A stretch of 64,000 nucleotides of DNA from Moniliella sp. 'wahieum'. Lineage: Eukaryota. The stretch spans positions 186,001 through 250,000 of the forward strand of contig RSEE01000041.1 of assembly GCA_003971905.1 (NCBI GenBank), in the 5' to 3' direction. The position numbers and the translations under genes are program-made. The number at the start of each line of letters is the position of its first letter. The first letter of the stretch is position 1. The notes below the pieces were generated by a model, which was not told where the DNA came from, did no database searches, and saw only the letters and a program-made list of their open reading frames with translations. Positions 10,107 to 45,700 of the stretch are shown piece after piece.

Positions 10107-10197
10107 CTTCCCCATTTCCCATTTCCCATTTCCCATTTCTCCTTTCCGCTTTCCTCTTTCCTCTTTCCCATTCTCCTATTCCCAATTCCCATTCCCC
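10107..10197. repeat. Pyrimidine-rich 7-bp-period tandem array (CCCATTT)4 decaying into CTTTCCN/ATTCCCN units
   Basis: cccatttcccatttcccatttcccattt at 10111-10138, followed by ctttccg ctttcct ctttcct ctttccc ... attccca attcccc attcccc. Confidence 0.8.
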
Positions 10198-22848: not shown

Positions 22849-24183
22849 GGTCCGGATCGGGCATGGTGGTGGAAGGTTAGGCAGGCAAGCCTGATCTGGT
22901 GCTGAGGGTACTCCGATGAGACGGAGTGGAGAGGGCGTCAGCAGGAGGTCGGGCTATGCAAAACGGCGCCACCTGTGTGCGGTGTGGCTGCGCTGGTGGC
23001 AGGCGGTAGGGCCGAGCGGTTGCGGCGTTCGCCGCTCGGTACGTACCAAATCGATACTCGATTCTCGATTTCCCAGCACGGGGGGGGGGGCTTGGCGCCG
23101 CTCACAACCACAACCACTCCTCGGATGGGCACCCGCACCTCAGCGTATACTCAGTACTCACCACAGGCACGCGTTTCGTGCTGCAGTCACACGTTTGGCC
23201 CTCAAGACGATGGCCGTGGACGCAACGGAGGTGGGGGAGGCGGGTCGATAGCAAGGCGGCGGAAGAGAATGGGGCCTAAGATTTAAGAGGAAAGCAGGTG
23301 CAGCCTTTGCATCAACCTGCCGAGACGGGGCGCCCCGCAGGATGAGATATAGCTTTCTCTCACACACGCCATGCGTTCCTGCCCCGGAATAGGAGATCGC
23401 TCGATTGCACCTCCCCCCCCAAAGCTCTACTAACCGGACAACGCCTTTCGGGCAGGCAGTCCCCCTAATTAACAGCACGTGTCGGTGGTCGTGTGCGCAC
23501 AGCTTAATATTGCACGCGCTGAGGGCTCAGATGGTGCGATTGGCCATTTGATTGGCTGCCCAATGGCTAGTGGCTAGTGGCTAGTGGCGATTGATATTGA
23601 CTGGTGGCAGTGCTGCCCCTGTCACAACAACACACATCATGCATCGTACATCATCCATCATCCATCATCCATCATGCACATCTACCCCGAGCCAGCCGAG
23701 ACCAACCAAGTTCTTGCGTAGACACCACAATGTCCGTCCGAGCTCTGCGTCCAAGCCAGGCCCAGTGCGAGTACTGATAAACAATACCGAGCACTGAGCC
23801 CACGCTGAGCGCTGGCTCGATGACGCGATGACGCCCGTCTGATCAACACGGGGCAAAGCGGCCCATCGACCCCATCGCCCAGAGTACTGAGTACTGAGTC
23901 TACTGTACTGCATCCCATCCACCCCCGCAGTTTCATGTGACAAGGAAGATTGGCCCGCCGAATCTGACACGGCAAGCCGCCATGGACGACGGCCATGGAG
24001 GGATGGAGGCAACGCCGCGTTTCACCGCCATGCCATCTTCTTGTGTCCCTACTCGGCTCCTGGAAGTGTGATATTAACGCAAGGAACGGAACCACCTTGT
24101 GGTCCAAACCGCGTCTCCCCCTCAGGCTCCTCAGCCTCACTGCCGTTCGCTCACGTCCCCTTGAACGATCGTGGCGACCATGC

Positions 24184-26039
24184 TCAGCAGAGCTCAGACA
24201 CGACGCCCTGCACCTTGGAGCTGTGCTGCAGGCAAGTAGGGAACTTAGTCTGACTCCTCCTCGTCCCCCCTCCCAGGGACTGCATCGACTTGCTCGTCCA
24301 AAAGTCCGTCCGTTGGCGCCGACTAATCCGAGCGAGCTTTTTGGGCCGTTCCTCCACTTCCTCGTCCAACTGCGGCGACCGAGTGCCTTGTTTCTCACTC
24401 GCGCTACCAGCCAGCTTGGTCGCGCTGCTTTTGCCCTCTGTGGCGTTCAAGGGGCTGGCGGGTTCACTGACAGGCTTCCCTGACCCCACCTCCACACCCA
24501 ATGTAGCTTCGACCTGGGCGCGCGTCTTCTCTCGCTCTGCTTGGCTCAATGGAGGCGAGGAAGAAGGGGAAGCAGAGGAAGGGGGGGAAGGCGGGGACTT
24601 GGTCGTCTTGGGCACGGCATCGGGCTGCTTCTCCCGTTCCAAAGGCTTGCTCAACTTGCTGTGCACGTAGCCCGACTCGGAGAGACGCGATAGCTGTAAT
24701 AGTCAGTACGATGGATCTCGGATCCGATGGCGGACAAATAAGAGGGGGGGGGGGGGAAGGGGGACGTACCCGATTGCGCTGTTTGATAGCCTCCTCTGAG
24801 ATACCGAGGATGCACCCCAAGAGCGAGCGGGGGTCCGGCTCGGCTCGACCGCTCGTCGTCGGCCTTGGTCATCAAATTTGGTGCGGGGCGGGCGAAGCAG
24901 GTGGCGGCCCGGGTCGGCAGTCGGATCAAATCGACACAAGGCACTGCTTAGTACGTCGTACGCACCGCTGAACGTTTGGCGCACGCTGAGAATGTTAAAG
25001 GAGGATTGGACACGTCGTTGGTCGTATCCAACGGATCTTCAATTGACAAGAGGAACGGACGCCGTTCGTCCTTCCATCCCGAACGCGCTTTGGAAAAGTA
25101 GCCGCCTTTGCCGCGAACAGTGATGCCAACCTGATCGTAATTGAATTGCTTGCCATAGAGCGAAAAAAATTCGAGCAACAAGACCCCAAGGTTGTCACAC
25201 GGGTCAATCTCCCGGCGCTGAACTTTGGGGTGCAATTGAAGAAAATTGATCACCAAGAGCGTGCACGCAAAGCTTCCCAGTCCACCAGAGTACACCTCAC
25301 TCAAGCCACGCTGGGCGAGCAAGAGCTTGACACACATGGTCAGCGGCCGCACGGCCGGTTGGCGCCGGAGCCACGAGTTGACAAAGCGCGCGGCGGCAAT
25401 ACCATTGGTGTGGTTGAGGGACATGTCCACCTTGAACTTGCCCAGAGAGGGAAGGGTGGTGAATTTGATGATGGGCACGCGGGCATGGGCAATGACTTGA
25501 ATGTCGTCAGCAATGCCATTGGTCTGGATGACGGTACGAAGCGCGTGGAGGATCCGCCGCGGGTTCTGCTGGCCCATCGACTCGGACACACAGACCAAGT
25601 CAATATCGCCTTGGGGCAGATAAAGACGCGTTTCTTGGCTGCCAAAGCTGTGCACTTGGGCATCGCGAAAGCGCGTGGTGACCGTCTGGCGGATGAGCTG
25701 GATCGCAGCGCGGCGGTCTCGTGCTCGTCGGGGGTAGGGGCGAGGTAGCGGTCAAACGCAACGATTTCCCGGTGCAGCGCTTGGGCGGCGTGGCGGGCGG
25801 TATGCCAGTCAACGTCCTTGGACCAGGGGGTGGCGAGGTCGAGCACGCCGGCATCGCGCTTGCGTTTGCGGGATTCGTGGGCCGGGGTGTCGTGGCCGTC
25901 GACGGACGCGATGAGGTCGTCAAGAGAGGGGGGCGGAGGAGAGTGGGTGGCGGGAGGGAGGGGGGGGAGGCGGGGGAGGGCCAAAGGAGATGAAGTCGTC
26001 CTGGAAGGCGCGACTGCTGTCGCGCTGTGTGGAGGCCAT
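24184..26039 (-). CDS. TRF4: Non-canonical poly(A) polymerase of the TRAMP complex (Trf4/5-like)
   Basis: FGSQETRLYLPQGDIDLV (GS/DxD nucleotidyltransferase motif), ARVPIIKF, RGLSEVYSGGLGSF, NLGVLLLEFFSLYG, LLSIEDP. ORF 24184-24666 is taken as the low-complexity last exon. Confidence 0.9.
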
Positions 26040-26338
26040 GGCGGTGGGGGTGGGGGGCGCTGGGGCTTGGTGTTGTGCTTGGTGCTGGTGCTTGGGCCCG
26101 GTGCTTGCAGCGTGCGAAGGCCAGCGCTGCCACACGGTTTGAGCCGTCGGCTGGAGAGCAGCAGAAAAAAACCACCTGCGCGGGCGGAATGGGCCACAGC
26201 GGGTGGCGCGGCGGAATGCCATCGCTGTTGCGATGGGCTGCATAATAACGTTGCAATATTGAAGGCGCCTTGACGTAATGTTTCAGTGCACTTACCAATT
26301 CCAATTTGTAAGCCGCATGTGTCACGGGCATCTTACCT

Positions 26339-28140
26339 CATCGATCCTCGATCATCGATCATCAGGTAGATCTCAACGGTCAAATCATTGCTTCGCCGAT
26401 CCTCGATCCTGGCCCCTTGTCCATTTCGGACCAGGGCATCCTTTGCTTCCCTTGGCCTTTGGTCTCAGATCGCACTCGTATCGCCAGACCCTTCCATGCA
26501 CCTGCTGGGAGTTGCAAATTAACTGGCCAACCCAACGTCCAACACGCTTTTTCGTGCGAACCGAACCAGACCGAACCTCAATAATGCGCCCGGTGATCGG
26601 TGATACCACCATTGACTTGACGTTTGACGCGTGACGCGTGACGTTTGACGCTCGTTTCCGCGTCTCCCTTAGCTTTTAAGCCTTGCGCGTTATGCGTTAC
26701 GAACGGGAAGTAGAAGAGATCGATGAGAGGGCCGGTGCGGTGAAAGGTCATGTGACCGGGTTTCACGCTTAGGACAAACCCTTAGGCCTTAGGCCTTACT
26801 AGGCCTTACTAGCTCCTAGTTACTAGCTTGACATGCATCACATGTGACATGTATGGACCGTGACATAGGCCAGTACTGTGATTATATCTTGAACAGGGCT
26901 TGGCACACATGGCACACATCACGGTGACTAGTGACTAGTGAGCTAGTGAGCTAGCTAGTGAGTAGTGACTAGCTACTGATTGCTTGATGCCGGCCGGTAT
27001 CCTGGGACGCGGAACTCAGCGCGTCAGATTTAAGCCGGAACAGGCCGGAACATCAAGTGGGTACGTTGAACGAGCTGAGTGCTTTGATGTTAATTTGATG
27101 CATGATGCATGATGCATGATGATCGATGAGACTGACGTACTCAGTACCAAGCCACTGGCGACTGAGGTATTGAGCGCAAGGTACTGAGCGCATAACGAAC
27201 CTAAGGCCTGAGGCGATGCATGGTGCATGCTCCATGATTAACTCGGGTACGAGGAGACCATTATCGATTATCCTTTAACGTTTAACGTTTAACGTACCTT
27301 GAACGCCTTGAACCTTTAAGCTTTACGCGTTGCGAGCTTTGCGAGCGCTTTGCGTTTTACAGGTTTAACTTGTAGCGGGTAAGGCGTAACGGTGACATGT
27401 GACATGCATGACATGAATGGCATGCCACATGTCACATGTCACTGTGATCGATGGCCAATTGATTGAAAAGCGATTGCAACCAAGTTGATAGCATTTTAAA
27501 TTTTACGGTTAAGAAATGCACCCATGTGTCTCACGTTTTGTACTAAACGTACTAGTCACCGATCACGATGTCACATGTCACATGATGCATGATGCATGAT
27601 GCATGACTTGTGGTGGCGTAAGAGACCATTACGCGGTACGCGTGACCGGTGACCGGGGACCGGGGACGCGTGACGGTGTGATTAGGGACTTGTGACTCGG
27701 GGACTGGAGCATGTGATACACGTATGACATGGGAGATCTGAGATCTGAGATCTGAGATCGGATGCAGATGCGCCTGGTGCGGCGGGGGCTGAATGGAAGG
27801 GTGTTTGTGTCTGGGTTGTGCGTTGCGTCGGATGTCCCGAATTGCAGGGCCTGGTTTGTTTTCGGTCCTGCGTCCCGCGCGTCACACCGTCACTTGATGA
27901 TTGATTGACCGATGGCCGACTGCATCGACGCGTGCATCATGCATCAGCCGAATGGGTAGGGTCGCAACGCAGGCCGCCGGCGGTATGCAGGGTGCGCATG
28001 GTCCAGCACACTTGCCCAACGACTCGGTGTGTGACATGTGCGTACGTGAGTCCAACGATGCTAGTTGCTCCGTGCCCGCACCCATTCATGAACCCATCCA
28101 TGCAGTCACGGCAGTCACTAGTCACTACTCACTAGTCACG
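26339..28140. repeat. Large island of 7-bp-period palindrome-plus-spacer mini-arrays
   Basis: ACGCGT x2 (26627-26639), AGGCCT x2 (26784-26796), ACATGT x2 (26840-26852, 27427-27439), ACTAGT x2 (26927-26939), ATGCAT x3 (27098-27117, 27585-27604), AACGTT x2 (27277-27289), AGATCT x3 (27734-27753). Confidence 0.92.
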
Positions 28141-28336
28141 GTGCGCTGGCTAGCTGACGATCCCAGGCACACACTGCTGCTGGTGGTGTGCTGTGCCGAG
28201 AGGCTGCAAGCAATCTTCGGCCGCGTTGGCTGAACCAATCCACGCCTGCTGGCAGCTGTGCGGGTGCCCCTTGCAGCCTGCCGTTCCTCCTGCCGTCCCC
28301 CCTGCTGCCCGCCCCACCGCCACCGCCCCCCGATCG

Positions 28337-31300
28337 ATGGCGTACAGCCAGCGCCAGCCCGTGCCTCCGCCGCGGATGACGACGTGTATGCGCGCCTACG
28401 CCTATGCGCCGCCGCCTGGCCTACCGACCGACCCGCCGAGCATGCCCGTGGGCGCGCCGCCCGCCCGCGTACGCCCGCCGCCGCCCGAGTACAGCCCCAG
28501 CGCCGCCTACCGCCCGCCGCCGCCATGCCGCCGCCGCCGCCGCCGTACCCCGTGCGCTATGCAGCCGCGACCGCGAGGCGGAGCCAGACGCACGCATGCC
28601 GCCCCCGCCGCCCCGGCCCCCTCGGTGCTGGGCCATGCGCCGCGCCCCTACTCGCCTGCCGCCCTCCCCACCGCCATCCGCCCGGGCCCCGCCGCTGCCC
28701 CTGGCCCCGGCCCCATCCCCATCCCGCCCCCGCCCATCGGCCCCGCGTCGTCGCCGTTGCCCTCGCCAGCCCAGGCGGGCCACCACCGCCCCCCTGGCAC
28801 CCGGGCATGCCGCCCCGCCGCGCGGGTACGAAGCGTCCCTCGCCCGCCGAGGGAGGCGGGGGAGGAGCGCGATGCGCATGCAGCGTATGAGCGCGAGCGC
28901 GCCCAGCGGGAGTATGAGTACGAGTACGAGTACGAGTACCAGGCCCAGGCTCAGGCTCATGCTCAGGCTCAAGCTCAGGCTCATGCTCACGCCCAAGCCC
29001 AAGCGCAAGCCCACGCCCACGCTCAAGCTCAAGCTCAAGCTCAAGCTCAAGCCCACGCTCAGGCTCAGGCTGCCCACGCCCAAGTCGACCCACTTCGCCA
29101 CGCGTCGCCTGCAGGAACGGAGGAGCGCGAGTGGGAGTGGAAGTGGGAGCGGGACAACGCGCGGCGTGGTCCCCATGCGCTGCATATGCTGCCTGCTGGC
29201 GAACGTACACGCGAACGGCTGATGGCGTACGAGCGGGAGTATGAGCTGAACCGCCAGCAGGGCGTCGCTATGAGTCTTCTCCCGCCCTACGCTGCTCCTC
29301 CTGACTCTGACGAGGGGAAGAGGATCGAGCGCAAGCGCAAGCGCTCGCGCATGCTCATGCTCATGCCCATGCTCAACAAGCCCATGCTCAACATGCCCAC
29401 GTTCAAGCGCAGACCCAAGCTCAAGCTCAAGCCCAAGCACACGCCCAAGCCGAAGCACAGCACAGGCACAGGCAGTACAAGCTGAAGCCGAAGCTCAATC
29501 TCAGGCACAAGCTCAAGCAGCTCAAGCAGCCGAAGCAGCTCATGCAGCTCAAGCAGCCGAAGCAGCCATGCAGCACAAGCGCAAGCACAAGCCCAGCCCA
29601 AGCCCAAGCCCAAGCCCAGGCCCAGGCCCAGATGGACGCCGCAGCTCATGCACATGCTCAACACATGGAGGCGTCCATGCCCCCACTGAGCCGAAGCGGA
29701 TGCGCACGCCCTTGCTCATGTTCCGGCTCATGCGCATGCCCAGGGCGAAGCGCACCGCCTCCGACCAACTCCGACGATGGGCAGGATGCCTCTTCCGCTG
29801 CAATCGCCCGTGGTACGAGAGAGACCGATAGAAGGGACAGGAGCGAGCGTGGCGCGCGTGGTGGCGCCCGTGCCGGTCCATGCTACGGCAGGAGGAAGAG
29901 GGAGTGTGGAAAATGGTGTTGCGCCGGGCACGGTGACTGCGGGTGCCGAGGCAGCTGGCACCAGCTCCTCGCCGCCTCTGCGCCCTGCCTCGGCCCAGCT
30001 CCCGGTTCCCGCCCGAGAACCGGTAGGGGTGATGAAAGAGTTGATGCAAGCCAATGTCGAAACGTGGTTGTCAATTGGTGTGTACAGTTTGGTTTCCGGC
30101 TGCTCGCTATGATATACTAACCTACCCCCCCCCCCCCCTTCCCGCGACGGTAGCCTCGGCGGCATCTACCATGGGCGGTCGCGATGGCTACGAACGGGCG
30201 ATTGAATCGATCCAGAATGCACTGCAGCACGATCCCCACTCGTTGGCGGCGCACCGAGCGCTGGGCAACGTGTACCGGGACATGGAGCAGCTGGACGTGG
30301 CGGTGGATGTGCTTCAACGCGCGCTCCAGCTGGCCCCTGAGGATGGCGAGACGTGGGGGGCGCTGGGCCACTGTTACCTGCTGATGGACGACTTGCAAAA
30401 TGCGTATGCGGCGTACCAGAAAGCGCTCTACAACCTGCCCAACGCCAAAGAACCACGGCTATGGTACGGGATTGGGATTCTGTACGACCGGTATGGTCTG
30501 TTGGACCAGGCCGAACAAGCCTTCTCGAGTGTGGTCAGCATGGACCGCGACTTTGACAAGGCCAACGAAATCTTTTTCCGTCTCGGGGTGATTTACAAGC
30601 AACAGCGCAAGTTTGCCGCCAGCCTCGAGTGTTTCCGCTACATTCTCCCTGACCCGCCCGCGCCGCTGAAACAGGCCGATATCCAGTTCCAAGTGGGCCA
30701 CGTGTCGGAACTGCAGGGCGACTTGGGGGCGGCGAAAGAAGCGTACGAGCGGGTGCTTGCCGAGCTGCCCCAGCACGCCAAGGTGCTGCAACAGCTGGGC
30801 GGCCTGTATCTTCACCCCGCCGCGCCATTTGCAGACCACGAGCGGGCGGTGGAGTACCTGACCATGTCGCTGGGGCGGATGCGGCGGATGCGCAAACGTG
30901 GTACCTTCTCGGTCGCGCCTTGATGGTTCAAGAAAACTACGACAAGGCGTACGAGGCGTACCAGCAGGCCGTGTACCGCGACGGGAACCAAGCTACGTTT
31001 TGGTGTTCGATTGGGCTGCTGTACTACCGGATTGAGCAGTACGAAGATACGCTGGATGCGTTTAGTCGTGCCATTCAGCTTCACCCGGGTATCCCCGAGG
31101 TTTGGTTCAACTTGGGCTGTCTGTACGAGACGTGCAACAACCAATGGCAAGATGCGCGGGACGCCTATGTGCGCGCGGCCCAGTTGGACCCGGACAATGC
31201 AGTGATCGCAGCGCGCTTGCGCTCCTTTCTCGCCCAACCTACCCAGCCTGTGCTCCCGCCCCGCCGACCACCAACGCCATTGGATGTCCCCCCGACGGTG

Positions 31301-32291
31301 CAGTACGTGTCGGGCTCGTACGAGCCGGCCGAAGGCGAAGAGGGGCCAGCGGCATCCCACGCCGCCGTACCGACTCTGCATGCGCTCGGGCCTGGAATGC
31401 AAGCGCCGAGAATGGCGAGCGGGCTACCTGCGCTGCAGCCCAAGGCGGGGGTCCCTCCCTCGTTCCAACGGCCGAACGGGAACGTGCCGACGCAGCGCCC
31501 AGTCCGCTTACCACGTCTGACGCGCGCCTCCCTGCGAACGGGGAGCTTGCGCAGCGCCCTGCTGGGCCCGGGGAGGGTGGGAGCCCGACGCTGCGTGCCC
31601 AAGACGACGGGTCGGGCGTGGGACGCGAGCCGGCGAGTGGTAAGAAAAAACGACCTTCGCCCCGCCCGCGCCGGAAAGCAAAAGTGTCCGATCCAGACGC
31701 CCCGAGAACGTAAAAGAAGAGCTGCGGGAAGCTGATAGCGGTGCGGTGGATGCGCTACTGGGTTTGGCCGGTGGCGCACGGTACCAGCAGCCTGTGCGGC
31801 CTCCTTCGGCGCCTACCGCCCCACCGGCCCTTTCGCCCCCACGCTCGTCAGTGGGGTCAGCGACCAGCGCACCAGCTCTGGCTAGCGTGCCGACGGGACG
31901 GCCTGGCAGTGCACTCGGTCGAGCCCCAACCAAGCGCGAGCGCTGGACCGCCGCTTCGCCCCTACAGCGAACAAGCGGCGTCGGGTGTCCAGTACAGGCC
32001 GTGGGCTCGAGGAGCGGGGACCTAGTCCTCCCTCGCATCCTCCTTCGCATCCCCCCTCGCGTCCTCCATCGCGTCCCCCCTCGCGTGCTACTTCGCGTCC
32101 CACCTCGCGTCCAGGCACCGAAGCGCACCCGTTGGTGCGCGAAAAGGTCATTGCCAGTCCAGGTGCCAGCGCTATCTCTGCCACTGGTTCCGAGCCTCTC
32201 CCGCGACCCTTCTCGCCCCTGTCCCCGGACGAGCCGCACCTTCGTCCGCACTCGGCCGGCGGCCGGCGAGCGCGGCCGGACGGACCACTGA
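28337..32291 (+). CDS. SSN6: General transcriptional corepressor Ssn6/Cyc8 (TPR protein) with long Pro-rich, EY- and QA-repeat N-terminus
   Basis: ANVETWLSIG, GETWGALGHCYLLMDDLQNAYAAYQKAL, EPRLWYGIGILYDRYG, KANEIFFRLGVIYKQQ, KAYEAYQQAVYRDG, FWCSIGLLYY, EVWFNLGCLYETCNNQ are hallmark Cyc8 TPRs. Ends are approximate. Confidence 0.93.
28910..29650 (+). repeat. Coding hexanucleotide repeats: (GAGTAY)5 = EY repeat and (CARGCN/CAYGCN)n = QA/HA repeats in SSN6
   Basis: gagtatgagtacgagtacgagtacgagtac at 28910-28939; caggcc caggct ... caagct caagct at 28940-29070 and again at about 29390-29650. Confidence 0.85.
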
Positions 32292-33949: not shown

Positions 33950-36257
33950 ATGCTGCTGCGCGCCTCGCTTGCCCCGCTCGCGCGCGTGTCGCCGCGCCAT
34001 GCGCCCACCCTCGCCGCGCGCTCGCCACGTCGGCCCGCGCCGCCCAGGCTGCCCCCGCCGACATCAAGATGATCAAGCTCACCATTGATGGCAAGGAGAT
34101 CGAGGTGCCGCAGGGGTACGTCCGTCGTCTCGTCTTCCCTCCTCCTCCCCCCCCTCCTGTGCCCATGTCCGCTGACCCAGCCTCTGCCCAGCACCGCCCT
34201 GATCCAGGCGTGCGAGCAGGCCGGCGCCCAGATCCCTCGTTTTTGCTACCATGAGCGCCTCAACGTTGCCGGCAACTGCCGCATGTGCCTCGTCGAGAGC
34301 AAGGGCGCGCCCAAGCCGCTCGCCTCCTGCGCCTTCCCCGCCATGCCAGGCCAGGTGATCAGCACCACCTCGGCCAAGGTCAACTCGTGGCGTGAAGGTG
34401 TGATGGAGTTCCTGCTGTCCAACCACCCGCTCGACTGCCCAATCTGTGACTGGGGTGGTGAGTGCGACCTGCAAGACCAGTCGATGCGCTACGGGGCTGA
34501 CCGCGGCCGCTTCCATGAGGTCAAGGGCAAGCGCGCGGTGGAGGACAAGTACATGGGCCCGCTGGTCAAGACGGTGATGACACGTTGCATTCACTGCACC
34601 CGCTGCGTGCGCTTCTCGAACGAAATTGCCGGCGTCCAGGAGATGGGTACGACGGGTCGCGGGAACGACCTGCAGATCGGCATGTATGTTGAGCAGGTGC
34701 TCAATTCGGAACTGTCCGGCAACGTGATTGATCTGTGCCCTGTGGGTGCGCTGACAAGCAAACCTGGTGCGTTCCATTCGCGTCCGTGGGAGCTGAAGAA
34801 CACCGAATCGATCGATGTCCTTGATGCCGTCGGCTCCAACATTCGCGTCGACTCGCGCGGTGTGCAGGTCATGCGCGTTCTGCCCCGCACGAACGACGAT
34901 GTGAACGAGGAATGGATCAACGACAAGACGCGCTGTTGATGGCCTCAAGTACCAGCGCCTCACCGCCCCGCTCATTAAGCAGGGCGACCGCTTTGTTCCA
35001 GCCACTTGGCCCGAAGCACTGGCATCTATTGCTGCTGGGCTGATCTCAACGCAGGCCGAGGGAAATGAGATCAAGGCGGTGGCGGGTGCGTTGGCAGACA
35101 CCGAATCATTGGCCGCACTCAAGGACCTAATCAACCGTCTGGGTTCGGACAACACGGTCGTGGATCTGCCTGCGGGGACAAGACCAGCATCAATGGTGTC
35201 GATATTCGCTCCAACTATTCGTTCAACGCTGGCATTGCTGGCATTGAAGATGCAGATGTGGTGTTGCTGGTCGGCACGAGCCCGCGGCACGAGGGCACTC
35301 TGGTCAATGCCCGTCTGCGCAAAGCCTTCCTCCGTCTTGGGCAGGACCTGGGATTGGTGGGCGAGCCAGAAGATTTGACGTACGACTATGCGCACGTAGG
35401 CACGGACGCCAAGGCGCTGCAGGAGGCTTTCACTGGCTCTTCTGAGTTTGCGCAAAAGTTCCAGGCGGCCAAGAAGCCGATGATCATTGTGGGCAGCGCG
35501 GTGCTGGAAAACCCAGACGGCAAGCACATTCTCAGTGGCATTGCCCAGCACATCAAGGACCACCAAGCGCAATTCCTTACGCCCGAGTGGAACGGACTTA
35601 GCATTCTCCAGCGCACCGCCTCCCGCAACGGAGCAAACGAGCTTGGGTTTGCCCCCTCTGAGGCGGCGGAGAAAACGGAGCCCAAGTTCATTTACCTTCT
35701 CAATGCGGATGACTTTGACCCTGCCTCGATTCCCGAGGAGGCATTCGTTGTGTACCAAGGACACCACGGTGACGTCGGCGCGCAGTATGCTGATGTTGTT
35801 CTGCTGGTGCGGCCTATACCGAAAAGAGCGTCACATACGTCAACACTGAGGGCCGGACCCAGCTTACCCGTGCTGCTGTACCTCCTCCGGCGCGAGCCGT
35901 GAGGACTGGAAGATCGTACGTGCCTTGTCGGAGGTACTGGGTGTGACCCTACCGTACGACAGTACGTTGGAGCTGCGGGACCGCCTGTTTGACCTGTCCC
36001 CCACGTTGGTGCGGTACGATGTGGCGGAAGCGACCAGTCCCGAAACGGCGCTCTTGGGTCTGGACCAACTGATTGCGAGCGGCAACCTGGCCCAGGCGAC
36101 GGGCGTACCGTTGACCAACCCGATCAAGAACTTTTACCAGACCGATCCGATCAGCCGCGCATCGCCGACGATGGCCAAGTGCGTCAAGGCGTTTATCGAA
36201 AAGCTACCGCGGGAGCAGATCGAGGACCCGCTGCCACCTCATGCACGCCTGGGGTAG
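33950..36257 (+). CDS. NDUFS1: NADH:ubiquinone oxidoreductase 75-kDa Fe-S subunit (NDUFS1/NUAM), mitochondrial precursor
   Basis: Arg/Ala-rich presequence, then [84 protein letters not shown]. Confidence 0.97.
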
Positions 36258-37054
36258 AGACCTAGTACCTATATCCTGGGCAGCTACCATAATGCATCCA
36301 TCTGTTCGCAGTCGTTTTACCCTGTAGAACGGCACAACTCAGAGAGAGCCAGACACAACCTCAGTATTCAGTCCAAACTGTGGGGGGCGCGCCTCTCGAG
36401 AAGAGTAGGCACCGGTGTGAAGATAGGTTAAGCGTTAAGGTACATCGCTCACCGAGCCCGTGTCCCCCCCAGAATCCGAACCACCTTCATTAACGACCGC
36501 CGGAGGCTACTTGCTGGTGGTCTAGTGGGATTTGCTTGTTTCAATTGCAAGTGCCATTGAAGATGGATTGGGCAAAAACCGGGGAAAAACAGACAAAAAA
36601 CAGGCAACGCGTGACGGGACGTGAAACATTCATTTTGCGGCTCTTTCGCCGAAAGCGTGGTCCGCAACCCTGTCGAGCAGTGATCAAGTGTGTGCCGCAG
36701 CAGGGCGCCAAACACTCCTGCAATGCCAGTGGCGTAGCGACTTTTACAACCCTACGTTCTGTCTCTTCCAGCTTCAGGGTGCTTCGCTTGGCTCTCGAGC
36801 ACCTCCGCCTCCATTCCTCCGTCGACGGCCAACAAACCGAAGGTGTGTACCAGGATTTCTTTTGAGGGCAGCGTACGGAAAGATGGCTGTCGATATTGTG
36901 GCCACCTCGGTGACGCTCGGCCTGTGTCAATCCGCACCCTGGGGCTGGCCATGGGTTGCGGCGCAGCCCGCCTTTTATGTGTCCCGCGAACGAGCGACGA
37001 GAGAGGGAATGGGCGTGGTGGCTGACTTGCTTTACGTTGACAGAATAACTCAGA

Positions 37055-37523
37055 ATGCCCAAGGGTGCGCAAGGAACCAAGTACCGCATGACCCTCGGTC
37101 TCCCCGTGGGTGCCGTGATGAACTGCGCTGACAACACGGGTGCCAAGAACTCTCTTGTCATTGCTGTGCACGGCACGGGTGCGCGCCTCAACCGTCTGCC
37201 GCCGCCTCGGCCGGTGACATGTTTGTCGCTTCGGTCAAGAAGGGCAAGCCGGAGCTCCGTAAGAAGGGGATGTCACAACTCCTTTTTGTCTTTTTTCTCG
37301 AGATGATGACTGACATGCTGGGATAGTCATGCCGGCCATTGTCATCCGCCAGCGCAAGACGTGGCGGAGGAAGGACGGTGTGTTCCTCTACTTCGAGGAC
37401 AACGCTGGTGTGATTGTCAACCCCAAGGGCGAAATGAAGGGATCGGCCATCACTGGCCCCGTGGCCAAGGAGTGCGCCGACCTCTGGCCCCGTATCGCCT
37501 CCAACGCCGGCACTGTTGTTTAA
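37055..37523 (+). CDS. RPL23: 60S ribosomal protein L23 (uL14)
   Basis: [24 protein letters not shown]...[11 protein letters not shown] | [64 protein letters not shown]. One intron at about 37268-37326 and a 1-nt deletion near 37200. Confidence 0.97.
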
Positions 37524-40384
37524 GCGTCTGTCTGTCACGTTGGGCATGATGCTGTACGGAGTGCTATTCTAGAACAGATCCTCTTCGGTTAGCGCTCTTG
37601 TCCTTCTATGTTCCGTGTGGTGTGCTCATTTCAGTGCACCCATCATGCTTCTCCCCCGCATGCCCCCCCATCCAAAATTGACATTGGCCTCGGGTCTTTG
37701 GCCGTCCCCCCTCCCCGTTGTCTGTTTCCTCTAGCTCGATGTCGTTAGACCGATAGGGGGTTCGACTAACGAGTCCAACCCGGAGGCTGAGATCAGGTTG
37801 CCAGATGGATCTGATCGTGAAAGGTTCCTTCATGGTCCCGCGACATCCGTAACAGTTATAACAGGTCTCACGGACGCACAAGAACAGTTTTGTTTGCCCC
37901 TCATTTCATTTTCGCCTTCCGATCCCACCCAGTATTCTCTTCCACCTTTTTGCTCATCTGCTGCCTTAATAGAGAAGTCGTTTAACACACGGCATGTTCC
38001 CTTGTTGAAGCACTCATCAGCCCCCCCATGGCGATATCCATGGTGCCGCCGTGTGCCCATTCAGGTTGAAAGTTGAACCAAGTTATACTTCGATCATTTC
38101 ACGCAGCCATGATGGGTTCTTGGCCTTGTTGGGCGTTATTGGCACACGAGATCTCAGCTTTGGGTCAATAGTAGCGACGTCCTGGTCCACCCAACCATGG
38201 AGACCGCAATGGATGCTGAAGTGTTTGGAACAGTAGCGTAGGCGATTGATTGCGGGCGAGAGATAGTGTTGGTGGTAGGAAGCAGAACGAGGGCTATATA
38301 GGAGAAGGCTACTAGTCGCTGGCTTACGCGTGTACGCGCGCATCAGCAGTCTTCGGGGAGCTCATGGAGCCTCGGGGCTATAGTAAGGTCGAAAGTGCAC
38401 CGCGATCAGCCATGAAGCCAGTCACTGTCGCAACACCATACAAGAGTCAAGAGGACAATGCGCTGTCTTGATGGTTGTTGGACCAACAGAGGTTCTCCAA
38501 GTACTAATGTGTTCTTCTCAGCCACTTCACCGTGGATCTTCCCCAATTCTAAATGTTCCATTCTTCGTATGCCACAGTAAATGGTCTTTTGGCCACGCAC
38601 GGTATGTAATTCCCATAATTGCATCCGTGGGGACAATCTTCTCGCCACTCACTCTCTCGTCTTGGTCATTGATGACGATTTTGACATAATGTGGCATCAT
38701 AATGGGGTCCGTAAGCTCTTTCAATACCAACTATGGGAACCATGTGACCCCTACGTCTGTGTTAATCACCTTCACACCCTTATTCCCTAACCGTAACAGT
38801 TAACCCCTCCCATCTTTTTCAAGCGCGCAAGCTATCCTAAGGCCTAAGGCATATAACTTTAAGAATCGTTTCTTCCTTTGAATCTATGTGATGGTAACGG
38901 TGTACGGGCACCCGCTCCAGACGCTGTCGTTGGGCATATGGGCATCGCGCGCTCTGCCACATATAATGTGGAAGGCCCCATTAGCTATATAGCGCCTCTT
39001 GTGATTTCTCTTGAATCTCCGCTACACATCCTTCCCTTGAGGGTGGGAGCGCGGGACCCTTTTTTCTGGACGGTAGTTTAGGGGTATAAACCCTTGGACA
39101 GATCAATCGGTAGCTCGTACATTAATAGGTCCTCCTCCAGATCCCGGTTGAACCGAGCGGGTGTAGAGCGAGGGAGAGACCCTCTAGTTTTGGTGGCTAT
39201 GCCTGCGTGCAAAGGCCGCAGCCCAGACCCTCCGAGGTAGGAGCCGCGTACGTAGGTAGTTAGACCAGCTGAAGGGGTCCAGGAGCTTAGAAGTTATCCT
39301 CTATTCTCCTTGCAGCGTTATCACACTCGGTACGCTGTAGCTGGCGGGAACAGACAGAGTCCTAAAGAAGAGCAAGCGCTACTGATGAGAGTAACCGCGG
39401 CTTGCAGTGCACTCGACGGAAGTCGTAAATTCGTAAGCGTAAGAGTAGTAGAAGGTGGAAGGGCGAGAGAGGAACTGGGTGTCGGGGAGACCAAAGGTAG
39501 GAGACAGAATGGTCGACAAGGACCACAGCTAGCAAGCCTTAGACATGGCTGCTTATATACAGCAGAGGGAACCAGGCCTCAAGTGCCTCATGACAGGTAT
39601 AGACAGAATGCGGGGCACTTCCCAGAGAGGTAAAGACTAATGCACAGCCCTTGCTCTCCATGGCGCTGACGCTGCGCGTAGTCGGGCGCAGCACCAAGGT
39701 TTCTGACAAGACTGGGCGCATTGGGCACAAAGCATCGTGCCGATAACCAATGATGCGACCATTATGGCGGGCCGCTGATGATATCCGCAGCAAGGATAAA
39801 GTGTCGACTGGCTCTCTCTCGCTAATCTAACCGGACTGACGCGTGTTGGGCTGAGATGTCTATGACATGCGGGGCTCAGCGCGCTCAGCGTCCGGAGATA
39901 ACCGGAGCGCCCCGTAACAGCGTTACACTTTTCCTCGTTCCCGTGTTGGGATAGCATATTATGTGCAGAGTGGAGGGTATCTTCCCACCGAGCAATAAGG
40001 GCCTAGCAAAAGGAGATTGTGAAGACTGATGAAGTCGATGAAGAAACTGATGGCCACGTACTGATAATATAGACCGCACGAAAGCCACTAGTAACTCGCA
40101 TTCAAACAAAGAGGGGAGAGAAGACGAAGTATTATTACATGAACCATCATGCATCAACATGTTCAACACGCACCAACTAGTACGCATCACGTTACGCTGC
40201 ACCCTCTTTTTCCGGCTTCCCTTTTCCATGGAGTGCGATGACATGTGCTTGTGACAGCCGCTGTTGCCAAGATTTGGGCCTCTAACAACGCCACCATAGC
40301 AATTAGGAACCGAAAAAAACTGGACTTTCGTATCGAAAAAGCAATTCAAAATTAAAGCAGATCATATGAAGGTGTGAGCACATG

Positions 40385-41545
40385 ATGAGCTTTTAAGCTT
40401 TAAGTGTGGGCTATAACGGAGAGCCTGGGGGAGCCTGGTGAATCCGGTGAATATAGGTGACTGTGGTGACATATAACGACTATATAGTGACTAGTGTTGA
40501 CGTTGATTAGTGACTCTAGTGACTCTAGTGACTATAGTGACAAGCGACTATAGTGACTCGCTAGTGACTAGTGACTAGCGACTTCTGATAATGACGTGAC
40601 GCGTGACGCGTGGCTAGTGACTAGTGACTAGTTTGACTGGTCGTCCTAGTGCATGATGTATGGCAGGTCCCTTATAGCCACAACAAGTGCACACTTACCG
40701 TATGGCCCCACAGTATACGCTCCGCCCCTCCATATAGTTGTCTTCGTTATGTCCTTTTAGCAATCGTTCTTCGGTAACCGGTAACGCGGCAACCGGTAAT
40801 GAAGGCTTAGCGCTTAGCCTAAGCGCTTAGCAAGCGCTTCTATGGTAGTGTCATGGATTTTTTCTGAGTCTATGAGATGGACTAGACCGAGGAGGCAAGC
40901 CCAGAGGCAAGCCCACATATGGGCATGCGGAGAAGAATCGGTAGTCCATCAGTTACATCAGTCTTCAAGCCTGTGAAGACTTTGTGATGAGCGTCGTACG
41001 TTGAATACTGTGGGAAACACGGGGCCTCTCTCAACGTCAAAAGCGCAGTGGTATCGTCATCGCCACACGTCATGACGCTGTGGAGAGCGTGGGTAAAAGA
41101 GTATGGCCCACTCACGCGAGGAGAGACCTGAGGCTCACAGGCCTGAGGGCTTGAGGCGGGCCAGGGTAGGTTTGATGGGCCTAGTATGCTCGAGTCCTCA
41201 GACCTGGGCCTTCGGCCTTAGGCCTTGGCCTCAATATTCAATGCGCTCAAGCTTCTTGAGCTCGTCAAGCTTCAAGCTTCAAGCTTCGAGGCGCTGAAGT
41301 GTTCGATACGATGTAGATGTTTTGATTATGTGACGGATACTAATGTCTGCGGGTCACTGGCGGACTGATCCATGATTGCACATGTTGGGCTTTTGCCGGC
41401 ATTCGCTTGAGGCCACGCGGGCATCACCATCCCCTGGCACAGGTGCCGAGGATTCAATATTCAAGCTTCAAGCTCCGGGCTGCTGATGCCTGAGCCTCAG
41501 ACCTTAGGCTAGAACCTTAGGCCTCTCAGACTCTAGGCCTTCCGG
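40385..41545. repeat. Island of palindrome-plus-spacer mini-arrays (7- and 9-bp periods)
   Basis: ACTCTAGT-G-ACTCTAGT-G-ACTATAGT 40513-40538, ACGCGT/ACTAGT chain 40599-40632, AAGCTT x3 41267-41286, AATATT-C-AAGCTT 41456-41468. Confidence 0.9.
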
Positions 41546-42783
41546 GTACCATATGAATGGCGCCAGCCACAGTAGTAGGGTGTGTGTACACGATGTGAAC
41601 TCATGTCGAAGATGGGGGGTTGGACGACATTGATCCGTCATCGAGCGTCATCTCATCGCCCCATTGGAGACAAGAAATTTGGGAGGGTACATTCGCCCCC
41701 TGCTTCGTCAGCATGTAAAATGTATCTGTTTGCCTTCTTCGACGGCGTAGCCCCGACCAAAACGGTCGACACGAGGCTTGTGGACCCCACAGAGAGGACA
41801 CCAGAAGAGTCGCCGTGACCCTACTGGATTGTAGAGTGACATGGGAGGAGGTGTGAAGCTTGAAGGGTGAGGCATGAGGTTTGCGAGGCCCGAGGCGGAG
41901 AAAAGAGCCCGCTCTTCACTCTGCGGACGACATGCTGTTGACGGGGGTGGAGGTGGGATGCAGGTTACCCAGCCCTTGGAGGCAGAGGCTGTGAGTTTGT
42001 GGCGTATTCGAACACCCATGGCACCCAGACTCACGTACTCATCGATCATGAACGCATCAACGTAACACTCGCCCACGGCGAGTGGCGCTGGTTTCTGCAC
42101 CCTGGCCAGCCAGCCTTCCAACCAGCAGGGCTTGCTTTGTTTTGTTCAAACACCCCGTCCGGCAACAGCTTCAAGCTTCATTGGCCGAAGGGTCGGGTAC
42201 GCTGAGCATCGGCTTCCGCTGCGTTGAGCACGTTGAGTGCTGTCACCACCACCACCACCCGTGTCGGCTTCGGCCTCCATCCTCCTCTGCGGCCCATTCT
42301 CAACGCATTCGCCCTCCTCCCGTCTCGCCCCACCTTGAACGAACAGGCTGCGCCCCTTCTCCCTGCCATTGCCCTGGTGGCCACCATCCTCAGCATATCA
42401 ACGGATCAGTGCCTCCGTGCCTCAGCACCTCAGCACCTCAGCGCCCGCTGCCCATTCAGCACGCCGGGGCCTGCAGGCAGCCCCGTTTAACAAAGCTTAC
42501 TCTCCCACTCCCGTAGAGGCGTGATCTTCTTCCTTTTCCCTTTCCTTTTCCTTTCCCCTTCCCCCTCCCCGCCTAACCCTCTCCCCTTCCATCTGCTCGA
42601 AAGCGCGCCAATTCAGCGCGTGCCATGTCTGTGCCCCGCACACGTTTTCCTCATCCGCCCACTCGTTCTGGACGTTCGTTTCTGCTTCGTAATTCACCAC
42701 CGAACACCATCAGTCGAAGCAGAGCGTTGAGCTCAGCTCTAATCACTCCTCGCTATGCCTCCCTCCCCACCTCGCCGCTCAAC

Positions 42784-45700
42784 ATGCCCTATCCATCTTC
42801 TTCTATCCCGTCTCACTCTGAACCAATTCTCCAGCCTCCTCACACTGTCTTCGATCCTCCTTCCCTCCAACGGGCCCACTACCCTGCACGACTTGCGCCC
42901 TCTCTCCTAACTTCAGCCCCGTTCCATGCCACATCCTCAGTATACGAAGGGGATCACGGGCAGCGTTCGGCCCCAACGGCGTCGCTAGTGCATACGGGGA
43001 GCTCCCTGTATGGCTGGGCGATCGTGACACTTCTGCATTGGATCCTGAGGTACGTTTCTGTTCAAACTCTTTTGATGCCGATGGCCTGCCTCCGCTGCCA
43101 GTTCTGGGAGACTAGAGGTACTAGCTAGCGACTTACGGGACTGGGTACGGCTGCACACGTGAGGTGACGTGCACGACTGTATCAGTGCTGTGGCTTCTAG
43201 GGGGAACGCCAGGAGTCGTGATGCTGCTTACCCGCGTGCGCGCGGCGCACGGTACCGTCTGGGGGCCAGGGCAATGAGCAAAAGCACAGAAGCTGACCGT
43301 GTCTGCCTTTCTTCACTTCGTCCTTTTTCGAATGCCGTTGTTGGTACCCAACCGTCTGTTCACCACCATTGCGTTAAAACAATCATCGATCGTCGTGCTC
43401 TGATCCTCGCTTGTGACTGCGTGGGGTGACCGATACGATGTGCTTGTGGTTACGCCGTGGCGCGCATTCCCCGCCAATGCGCTTACTGCGCTATTGGACG
43501 TTTCTGGACTCGCACCGAACGCGCTGTGTGCCACCCGCAATTCACACTTCTTTGCATGGCCGCTATACCTACGTTATCAACTCGCCACTTGTCTACTATG
43601 CAACTTGCCGGAACCGAACTATTCATATGTGATTGCCTCGACCTCAGCTTCAAACCCAACATTCACCTTCTTCAACATGGTTGCCGTCGCGTCATGAGCA
43701 CATGATCTCCATGGCTGCCCCCACCACTATTTCCACTGAAGCACCGGTTAGCCCCGCTATTCCTGCCATCTCTGCCCGTCCCGTCTTGAACCCCGACGCC
43801 CTACAGACGAGGCATGAACCGGAATTGGCTCATTTGCCAACTCCAACGACCAATGAGTATATGGCGTTGCTGCTGGCCGCTGGCAATCGTTCTCCCACCG
43901 ACAGCCCCATCCATGCGTTCGCTTCATCCTGGCTGCAGACTCAAACGGGTATGGGGCAGGCCTTCGCGAGACCCAGTCTCCCTCTGCACATTCTCCTGTG
44001 ACCACTTTCTCCCGTTTTCCGTCGGCCCCCTCAGCTCCCTTACACGCAACACAAACTTCTTTCCCTTGCCTGGACTCACCCTCCCTTCCAGACCACCATG
44101 ACGAGGCCAGCCCGAAATTGTCGGTCAGACCACCCATTTCACCTTTGCATGCGTATCAGTCAGCCTCCCGCTCCCGGCTGGTTCCGACTTCTTCCCCTCG
44201 TACCTGGGCCGACATCGACGCTGGACCAACGAAATATCACCCCAAGCCATCTCCCGTCATCCTGGCTCTGGGCCTGGTCCATCGTTGGATTCTGGTTACC
44301 TCCCACCCCCTGCCTTGGACCTTGATCTTGCTCGTGAACTCGAAGCGGCTTCTTCCCTTACTCCCAGCCGCCCGAACTGGGCTACACCAGTCGCTCTAAG
44401 GGAACAGGTGTACTCCTTACCTCATCCTACTAGCTCAGGAGGGAGATGCGAAGATGAGTATGGGTACCAGCGTCTAAGCCATGCTCCTACGTTCCTACCT
44501 GGTTCTGCCTGCCCCCCGACCCCCCAAGGAAGCCAGCCGTGTTCGCCGCCCTTCAACCAGAGTGGCAGGTGCGTCGAACGCGAAGCCGAAGTGCCTTAGC
44601 TCCACAACAGGCTGCCACTTATGAACAAATGCACACGTTGGCCGCCGGCCTACCCCTAGGCCCAGAGGCCAACGCTCTGATGCGCCTGGCCCAAATGGAC
44701 CTGTCTTCCTCGAACGCAGATCGCCGGATAGGCATTCTGCGCCGACAGACGACAGGGGCCGTCGGCCCTAACCTACAGGGTGGGCTGTCGCGCGATCCGC
44801 AGATGGAGTACCAGGCTCAAGCTCACCAGATACGCTTTGCTTCTGCAGTACCCTCTTCTTCTTCCTCGGTCCATACATCTTTGCAATCCTCGTTGCTCCC
44901 ATCCCCCTCTTCTGGGGGTGGGACTTGGCCCTCTGTCCCCATCCCGCCCACTGTACCCTCGGCAGCCTCTTTGTGGACTGACCAAGTCCCTTCGGACCAC
45001 TCTCTTGGTACTGAGTTGGACACACGTCTCCCGGTGCAGGAGGGACCTACGTTCCCCGCTTCAATGCGAGATTTGACCGCCCCTGGGCCAAGCCTAGCTG
45101 ATCCAATCTCCAGTCCGACGCAAGACCAGCAGCTGACCGACCCGAGTACATTCGTCCCTGCTATCCTCCCCCATGGACAAGGCCTTCCCGGTTCTTATTA
45201 TTCCCACAAGCCCGGACATGTGGCACGTCCAGTCGAGGCCCGCACCCCGCCAACCGAACCAAGTAGTGCAGCATCGCACGGACGCGCAGGGCCGAACGTA
45301 CCTACGAGCCAACGCAAAACGGAGCTGTACAAGACGGAATTATGCCGCAAATGGACCGAACGGGGGAGTTGTCGATATGGTTCCAAATGCCAGTTTGCCC
45401 ATGGAGAGAGCGAGCTGCGACCTGTTGAAAGGCATCACCTCTACAAGACTCAGATATGCCGCACCTTTGCCAACACGGGGGGCATTGCCCTTATGGGATG
45501 AGGTGCACTTTTCTCCATCCTGACTCGGACAACGTTGCCACCCAACCTCCTCTTCCCTCTTCCCTGACCGCAACTAGCCAAGCCGGGGGTGCACAATCAG
45601 GATCGAGTGGTTCGTCCTCGGCCTCGATGCCTCCCTCCCTGGTGGGGAAGAAGGTGGTGCCTGTTCTTTCATCAAGCCCAACCGATCGTAAGCATTCCCC

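Follow-up and report, generated by a model that had tools for sequence, protein, structure and literature searches.

Introduction

Short tandem repeats are usually put down to slippage, with little constraint on the sequence of the repeated unit. Here we describe arrays of 7-bp units in a 64,000-bp stretch of the Moniliella sp. 'wahieum' genome (contig RSEE01000041.1, positions 186,001 to 250,000; hereafter the window), in which one rule covers two thirds of the period-7 arrays (32 of 49). The rule prescribes a length of 7 bp and a unit composed of T-N-A and any G/C-containing 4-bp palindrome, and it holds in fungal lineages that have been separate for hundreds of millions of years. The arrays were noticed in a spacer at 26339-28140, between genes named TRF4 and SSN6, where the original prediction described them as A-NNNN-T palindromes separated by one base.

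Several described systems share some of these features. Tandem repeats in yeast promoters, reportedly treated by Vinces and colleagues in 2009, are said to be A/T-rich and to follow no symmetry rule. The present arrays resemble fungal promoter repeats and microsatellites in being short, head-to-tail, non-coding, low in copy number and decayed at their edges, but they are fixed at 7 bp and combine T-N-A with a 4-bp palindrome. Ogata and co-workers reportedly observed that DNA polymerases elongate palindromic tandem oligonucleotides in vitro via hairpin-coil transitions. There too, self-complementary tandem units are said to amplify preferentially as the strand primes on itself, although this is a high-temperature test-tube reaction with no T-N-A rule and is not known to take place in cells. 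PIF/Harbinger transposons duplicate 3 bp, T-W-A, inside a longer palindromic target of 9 bp; such targets are likewise odd palindromes centred on T-N-A, but they have specific bases and a 3-bp duplication, whereas the base between T and A in the window is G or C in 26 of the 32 arrays.

Longer target duplications are found in Basidiomycota, the phylum of this fungus, including the 7-bp duplication of Abr1 of Agaricus. The accessible part of Kojima (2025, PMC12730594) describes hAT7 of the Pucciniales and Kyakuja of Laccaria as DNA transposons with 7-bp target duplications. These share with the arrays a direct 7-bp duplication, and differ in that no element or inverted end was detected in the window and no transposase in the open reading frames scanned there. 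We know of no target duplication for which strict palindromy of the unit is an established property. Transposases of the hAT, Transib, RAG and MULE groups form hairpins on flanking DNA, and end joining leaves footprints, according to the portion of PMC5499845 that is available. Heptanucleotide repeats are known from large GC-rich bacterial genomes including Xanthomonas, Nostoc and Burkholderia (Rehm et al. 2015, PMC4692102, in its accessible sections). As described there, they are dispersed intergenic period-7 arrays whose unit differs by locus, as in the window, but their units are non-palindromic and often G-rich.

Each of these systems has at least one defining feature that the arrays lack, and the symmetry-only grammar sets the arrays apart. 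Consistent with the claim that no described system has this signature, heptamer arrays of T-N-A and a palindrome were not found in the searchable literature, outside which most subscription journals lie. A 'palindromic microsatellite' paper on Fusarium (PMC7218506) concerns, in its accessible part, mitochondrial elements that are unrelated. Since standard microsatellite surveys end at 6-bp units, a class of palindromic heptamers would be missed by them.

Palindromic units are enriched at period 7

Exact tandem runs holding two or more units were counted across the window, with a cut-off of 14 bp for exact arrays, and compared with 200 dinucleotide shuffles made in 1-kb blocks. There are 66 such runs at period 6, 49 at period 7, five at period 8, nine at period 9 and three at period 10. 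Among the 49 period-7 runs, 32 are built from a palindromic hexamer with A...T ends (A-type) plus one base, 16 contain no 6-bp palindrome, and the remaining one is a CGGCCG/GCCGGC-G run; palindromes beginning with T do not occur. The corresponding means in the shuffled sequences are 0.02 for A-type (maximum 1), 0.165 for C-type, 0.25 for G-type, 0.05 for T-type and 4.06 for non-palindromic arrays. The predicted enrichment over shuffled DNA is therefore present window-wide (32 A-type arrays against 0.02 expected), and it is not matched by non-palindromic 7-mers (16 against 4.06). The specificity for A...T ends is borne out too, there being one C/G-type run and no T-type. A stricter count of positions at which a palindromic hexamer, one base and the same hexamer follow each other gives 22 A-type, one C-type, one G-type and no T-type cases, with 0.04 A-type expected from 100 shuffles.

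The symmetry is a property of period 7 only. Maximal dyad symmetry of the unit is found in 33 of the 49 period-7 runs, where 11% is expected, and it is no higher than expected at period 4 (26/260), period 5 (16/101), period 6 (1/66), period 8 (0/5) or period 9 (0/9). These counts support the description of the arrays as constant in symmetry, period and A...T ends while varying in sequence. Head-to-tail direct copies are what a microsatellite would show, but the unit sequence is constrained, with 32 of 49 arrays following the grammar; ordinary slippage is thus insufficient as an explanation, as had been proposed.

The arrays do fill the TRF4-SSN6 spacer as described, with 14 of the 32 A-type arrays, but they are not confined to it: across the window, seven or more non-coding stretches carry them. 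The convergent ARG1/ALO spacer has none. Period-7 tracts reported by Tandem Repeats Finder (TRF) cover 374 bp, about a fifth of the 1.8-kb Trf4/Ssn6 spacer. Over non-coding blocks, base identity rises from a background of ~0.255 to 0.302 at lag 7 and to 0.280 at lag 14; coding DNA, unlike these 7-periodic blocks, shows lag-3 periodicity.

Unit composition

A 4-bp palindrome lies within 40 of the 49 period-7 units (37% expected). Of these 40 units, 32 have T-N-A as their other three bases, and most of the remaining eight miss it by one base (TGG, TTC, TCC, GGA). The unit is therefore best written as [T-N-A][4-bp palindrome], and the A-NNNN-T hexamer with its single spacer base is a by-product of this arrangement. 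The original estimate of about 13 of the 16 possible A-type hexamers was right as to their broad use and slightly high as a count, since 12 of the 16 palindromes are present as exact arrays of at least 14 bp. The four absent are the all-A/T ones, and AATATT, which had been named as a member, is represented by an imperfect copy only. The eight palindromes of 50% G+C account for 25 arrays, including all six arrays of at least 21 bp, and the four all-G/C palindromes for seven.

Only three period-7 arrays join T-N-A to a non-palindromic 4-mer, compared with the 32 palindromic ones. The arrays are not expansions of an abundant motif, given that outside arrays TCA plus palindrome is just 1.44-fold and TGA plus palindrome 1.09-fold over expectation. 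The same units are found at unrelated loci with unrelated flanks, AAGCTT-S recurring seven times in the window. Complementary bases correlate at positions ±2 and ±3 around the spacer while the sequence itself is free, and around both symmetry axes this correlation is perfect; such a pattern would be the mark of base pairing and not of contacts with protein. A role as a stop-codon cassette (T-G-A or T-A-A in all three frames) was considered and rejected, the orientation of purine spacers being independent of the neighbouring genes.

Arrays are direct duplications

The two symmetry axes of the arrays, 3.5 bp apart, had suggested iterated fold-back synthesis or hairpin opening, by which alternating mirror images would be laid down; hairpin opening is known to yield short palindromes (PMC5499845, in its accessible part). 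Mirror symmetry would then extend to the spacers. Spacers were compared in 24 hexamer-N-hexamer cases: the one that follows the pair repeats the middle spacer in 20 cases and complements it in two, and the one ahead of the pair repeats it in 21 and complements it in one. With spacers identical in 20-21 of 24 cases, the arrays are translations, that is direct duplications, of a unit that is asymmetric at N only. Complementary spacers do occur, as in AGGCCT-G-AGGCCT-C at 63916 and in the ACATGT-G/ACATGT-C pair at 27392 and 27426, but fold-back predicts them throughout and they make up just one or two of the 24. Any general process that makes palindromes would be expected to leave isolated ones too, but outside arrays neither even nor odd palindromes with arms of 3 to 7 bp are in excess over shuffles; for arms of at least 5 bp the counts are 68 (even) and 68 (odd), where shuffled DNA gives 66.8 ± 7.4 and 75 ± 6.9. 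Fold-back as the generator of the arrays is accordingly very improbable.

Many of the arrays are surrounded by imperfect period-7 tracts of 37-56 bp in the TRF output, and in 15 of 32 arrays the run length leaves a remainder of 2-6 on division by seven, well above chance extension of whole units. From these remainders and tracts we conclude that the exact arrays are fresh cores of older, decaying 7-periodic tracts. Different palindromes also abut in a common register. At 40595 and 40614 an ACGCGT-G array is followed by an ACTAGT-G array with their spacers 21 bp apart; over the two adjoining arrays at 27568-27606 CATG holds the 7-bp register while the other three bases change; and among metagenome contigs (see below) AACGTT-A is followed in register by AAGCTT-G (L011) and AAGCTT-C by ATCGAT-T (L047). 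New unit types thus seem to arise inside or at the edge of existing tracts.

Some local irregularities accompany the tracts. A short metagenome contig (L036, positions 1-180) carries AAGCTT-T, AAGCTT-C and a one-off unit AGCTTGC back to back, with about four copies each, which plainly shows how one unit type gives way to another while the register is kept. Directly 5' of the AACGTT-G array, at 63374-63385, the ACGT palindrome is tandemly doubled (ACGTACGT), making a 4-bp step in a 7-bp tract, and a similar irregularity is seen at 26941-26965 (GCTA/GCTAGCTA). Blocks of ACTAGTG type at 26920-26989 and 28087-28143 flank the central 1.2 kb of the Trf4/Ssn6 spacer in inverse orientation, and both adjoin the 7-mer CACGGTG, which gives the spacer a foldback-like look without other homology between the arms. 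A large inverted duplication of the spacer was considered and rejected, as the inverse match consists of just 30-59 bp of ACTAGTG units.

Folding and pairing of the units

Two adjacent units are predicted to pair as a 5-bp stem closed by a T-N-A triloop, and single arrays have calculated folding energies of -4 to -6 kcal/mol in this form. Neighbouring arrays could form long hairpins: the compound array at 27385-27450 folds at -22.8 kcal/mol (z = -6.0) and that at 40555-40635 at -17 kcal/mol (z = -4.7). We tentatively favour a reading in which the arrays are a distinct, lineage-wide and self-propagating class of heptamer microsatellites in non-coding DNA, amplified only when the unit is self-complementary. 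Arrays would start by direct 7-bp duplication or by slippage, reach two to four copies, and later erode by point mutation inside longer 7-periodic tracts, with new palindrome arrays appearing beside old ones and often in the same register. Self-complementarity, together with T-N-A at the odd axis, would decide which 7-mers amplify or persist. The filter would then be a pairing-dependent bias in replication or repair rather than a sequence-specific protein site, and the pairing step may involve a strand with itself, or with the opposite strand of like sequence, during either process. One mismatch per 7 bp could stop the arrays from becoming perfect palindromes, which are removed by cells, and this mismatch together with the weakness of 5-bp units may restrict the effect to period 7. 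The dependence of amplification on structure is the part of this scheme that we infer.

A number of points weigh against it. Mean folding energies of three units (DNA parameters) are -2.96 kcal/mol for A-type, -3.10 for T-type, -5.29 for C-type, -5.40 for G-type and -1.05 for random units, so that T-type units fold as well as A-type, and C- and G-type units are more stable yet absent but for the single run noted above. Because the A...T and T...A classes fold equally well, hairpin stability cannot explain the use of one over the other. The folding of single arrays does not exceed that of their own shuffles (z = -0.1 to -1.5), and periods 4 and 6, which should favour hairpins more, show no enrichment of palindromic units. 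Looping out two units would be hard with only two to four copies present, and hairpin-aided slippage would probably be weak for the step from two copies to three. The scheme does not account for that step, nor for the use of T-N-A but never A-N-T. A few units recur at many loci (AAGCTT-S seven times), a pattern compatible also with function or with a preference for certain targets.

Function is the basis of a second, more doubtful reading, in which the arrays are selected promoter elements read by shape or structure, whether as cruciforms, as hairpin-prone DNA or as homotypic clusters of dimer sites, with dyad symmetry being what selection sees. It draws on the concentration of arrays in promoter-like spacers, the recurrence of units at unrelated loci, the strong hairpin potential of the compound arrays, and a grammar kept from Ustilaginomycotina to Agaricomycetes; ACGCGT (MCB) and TGACG, within some units, are known fungal motifs. 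Twelve palindromes, however, cannot be the site of one factor, and a set of factors would not be expected to share what these 12 hexamers have in common, namely period 7, a 1-bp spacer and A...T ends, which is also unlike a homotypic cluster of transcription factor sites. C-, G- and T-type palindromes, which are bound by many dimeric factors, are absent as arrays, the array edges decay freely, and the energies of single arrays are weak for cruciform extrusion.

Symmetry that is kept without sequence implies either strand pairing or a two-fold symmetric enzyme acting on promoter DNA. If the self-propagating, mutational reading is correct, the arrays reveal a new bias of replication or repair, and if they are functional, a promoter element of a new kind; tractable basidiomycetes, Ustilago and Coprinopsis among them, allow either possibility to be tested directly.

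Comparison with transposon footprints and other known classes

The arrays could be scars of a two-fold symmetric enzyme, for example an active or domesticated DDE transposase, whose staggered cuts span 7 bp around a central T-N-A and which would add one 7-bp unit per cycle of cut-and-fill or of insertion and excision. The central T-N-A always holds a flexible pyrimidine-purine step, as do the centres of many transposase targets. The length is fixed at 7 bp and specific to that period, the arrays favour long, promoter-like spacers (14 arrays in Trf4/Ssn6, none in the convergent ARG1/ALO spacer), and 17 of the 26 arrays shorter than 20 bp fit a unit starting exactly at T, with 8-11 fitting the other registers. 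Basidiomycota do have transposons with 7-bp target duplications, and hairpin-forming transposases leave end-joining footprints (PMC12730594 and PMC5499845, both as far as their accessible parts go).

The register differs in other fungal contigs, however, and a target preference cannot require perfect complementarity of bases that vary freely. A base preference without obligatory self-complementarity, as in target-site duplications, would be expected to give ~15-fold more arrays of T-N-A with a non-palindromic 4-mer than with a palindrome, and just three were found beside the 32 palindromic ones. The direct 7-bp duplication is present in the window, but an element and a transposase are not: no transposase domain was detected with Pfam in the open reading frames (ORFs) scanned there (13, 78 and 93 ORFs), and a search for elements that combine inverted ends with a target duplication of 3, 7 or 8 bp yielded only arrays matching themselves. 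The hAT7 end motif is not enriched in the window, with six matches against 6.2 expected. We therefore regard scars of such an enzyme as an unlikely source of the arrays.

A footprint model of a 3-bp T-N-A duplication plus 2+2 nt of transposon ends fits poorly, with a run length of 7n+3 in only 3 of 32 arrays, and is rejected because the 12 palindromes would also need 12 transposon families. A foldback element or miniature inverted-repeat transposable element was likewise discarded, there being no inverted ends with a duplication, arm homology limited to the 30-59 bp of ACTAGTG units, and unrelated flanks around arrays of the same unit. Structured RNA is excluded by the lack of Rfam matches in the window at gathering thresholds (0).

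Taken more broadly, the arrays might reflect an undescribed DNA transaction of Basidiomycota that specifically duplicates 7 bp at T-N-A-centred dyads, through a symmetric nuclease or domesticated transposase dependent on pairing between the half-sites, or a structure-read promoter element. We consider this improbable; if true, either would amount to a sequence-free, symmetry-only code in promoters throughout the phylum.

Occurrence in other fungi

Metagenome contigs were scanned for (AAGCTT-S)3, which gave at least 121 loci, divided into 21 fungal-like loci and 100 others. The 21 were chosen after the arrays had been seen, by contig-name prefix and a G+C content of ~50%. Among the matches listed, these 21 loci (94 kb) contain nine extra A-type arrays, against 0.2 A-type arrays in all expected, together with two other palindromic arrays (GTCGAC-C, CTCGAG-T) and eight non-palindromic ones. 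The extra A-type units include AACGTT-A (L011), AACGTT-C and ATCGAT-T (L047), ACCGGT-A (L079), AGCGCT-G (L090) and ATCGAT-C (L118). The 100 other loci, again among the matches listed, carry 150 non-palindromic period-7 arrays and seven extra A-type arrays; many of the contigs found by the scan are of low or high G+C and bacterial-like, their further period-7 arrays being mostly non-palindromic. Because one A-type array was the basis for finding every locus, and the 21 were selected post hoc, only extra arrays count, and the contrast with the 100 others is indicative only.

Fungal affinity by protein match rests on two of the 21 loci. L079 encodes part of a helicase that shares 84% identity with a protein of Lactarius deliciosus, and L047 a kinase whose best matches, of up to 47%, are all to Agaricomycetes and mostly to Agaricales. 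Since the window, L079 and L047 all carry arrays, the grammar is present in at least three basidiomycete lineages, from Ustilaginomycotina to Agaricomycetes. In the metagenome loci it is about ten-fold less dense than in the window, and other palindromes are less strictly shut out. Other contigs with (AAGCTT-S)3, including L001, L005 and L059-L061, have a G+C content of 28-45% and five to seven other, non-palindromic period-7 arrays within a few kb; they probably come from prokaryotes, in which heptamer repeats of this sort are known.

These contigs were assembled independently, and the presence of the grammar in other basidiomycetes bears on whether the arrays could be artefacts of assembly or amplification. 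In the window they sit between unique flanking sequences at over 30 sites without once breaking into a coding region, and an artefactual origin is scarcely credible.

Distribution of the arrays in the window

All of the arrays first listed for the Trf4/Ssn6 spacer (at 26340, 26627, 26784, 26840, 26927, 27098, 27277, 27585, 27645 and 27734) are present at those positions. From left to right, the spacer contains ATCGAT-C (16 bp, 26348-26363); ACGCGT-G (19 bp, 26625-26643), within a decayed TGACG-NN tract at 26616-26652; AGGCCT-T (19 bp, 26780-26798); ACATGT-G-ACATGT (26840-26852), which at 13 bp is shorter than the cut-off; and ACTAGT-G (18 bp, 26924-26941), heading a decayed tract that reaches 26972. 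These are followed by ATGCAT-G (26 bp, 27096-27121), AACGTT-T (22 bp, 27274-27295) and an inverted pair at 27392-27442 formed by ACATGT-G (27392-27406) and ACATGT-C (27426-27442). At 27568-27606 an ACATGT-C array (27568-27584) adjoins ATGCAT-G (27581-27606). An ACCGGT-G array (27642-27656) is continued to 27678 by a one-mismatch GACCGGG and a decayed G(T/G)GAC-NN tract. The longest array, AGATCT-G (27 bp), lies at 27733-27759, and the right end of the spacer holds ATGCAT-C (14 bp, 27933-27946) and ACTAGT-C (15 bp, 28113-28127), the latter inverted relative to the array at 26924.

Near the left end of the window, AAGCTT-G (101-115), AACGTT-A (166-180) and ACTAGT-C (409-422) lie upstream of a plus-strand gene. 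An AGTACT-G array (18 bp) is located at 23882-23899, with one-mismatch relatives nearby, TCGATTC at 23057-23070 (in a TRF tract at 23051-23070) and TGGCTAG at 23564. AGGCCT-A (15 bp) is at 38836-38850, and a cluster at 40561-40818 is composed of ACTAGT-G (40561-40578), ACGCGT-G (40595-40612), ACTAGT-G (40614-40632), ACCGGT-A (40772-40785) and AGCGCT-T (40805-40818). AAGCTT-C arrays follow at 41265-41287 and 41460-41474, and isolated 14-bp arrays of the same unit at 42167-42180 and 48905-48918. Downstream of the TFIIA-gamma gene are AAGCTT-C (62371-62385), AGATCT-G (62906-62920), AACGTT-G (63382-63402) and AAGCTT-G (63570-63586).

Genes flanking the arrays and other repeats

The window DNA is fungal nuclear, with a G+C content of ~58%. 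Its D-arabinono-1,4-lactone oxidase ORF has its nearest named relatives in Pseudozyma, Testicularia, Ustilago and Thecaphora (Ustilaginomycotina), at 44-47% identity, and is 52% identical to that of Jaminaea across half its length, which places the fungus in this basidiomycete subphylum. Gene assignments rest on Pfam matches, a codon-bias gene map being too insensitive. To the left of the array-rich spacer is a Cid1/Trf4-type poly(A) polymerase gene on the minus strand (23685-26332, extent according to the ORF list), whose ORF at 24951-25751 matches PAP_assoc (8.9e-22), MTPAP-like_central (1.6e-18) and also NTP_transf_2. To the right, on the plus strand, is a gene for a TPR protein (28154-32000) with Q/A-rich hexamer repeats at its start and TPR_1 matches of 8.2e-29 and 4.1e-19 in ORFs 30045-30923 and 30653-31735; we take it, by resemblance, to be Ssn6/Cyc8-like. 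The PAP_assoc and TPR_1 matches make the names TRF4 and SSN6 reasonable. The 5' ends of both genes face 26333-28153, which is thus a divergent promoter spacer.

The start of the Ssn6-like ORF (28910-29630) is dense in repeats of period 6, 9, 18 and 27 (GCTCAA, CAAGCT, AGCCCA and others), which probably encode the Q/A-rich tract; yeast Ssn6 likewise has such a tract. Between a cyclin-like ORF and the gene for the NADH dehydrogenase 75-kDa subunit, the segment 33100-33700 has a G+C fraction of 0.72 and many G-rich repeats of period 3-21, without palindromic heptamers. The ~8-kb region at 36250-44450 has no Pfam match except a weak ribosomal L14 fragment at 37049-37303, and includes two array-rich non-coding blocks, at 37569-39255 and 40362-41710. 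Just upstream of the argininosuccinate synthase ORFs, about 12 copies of (CCCATTT) at 10111-10197, succeeded by related pyrimidine-rich heptamers, form a period-7 array of the non-palindromic kind.

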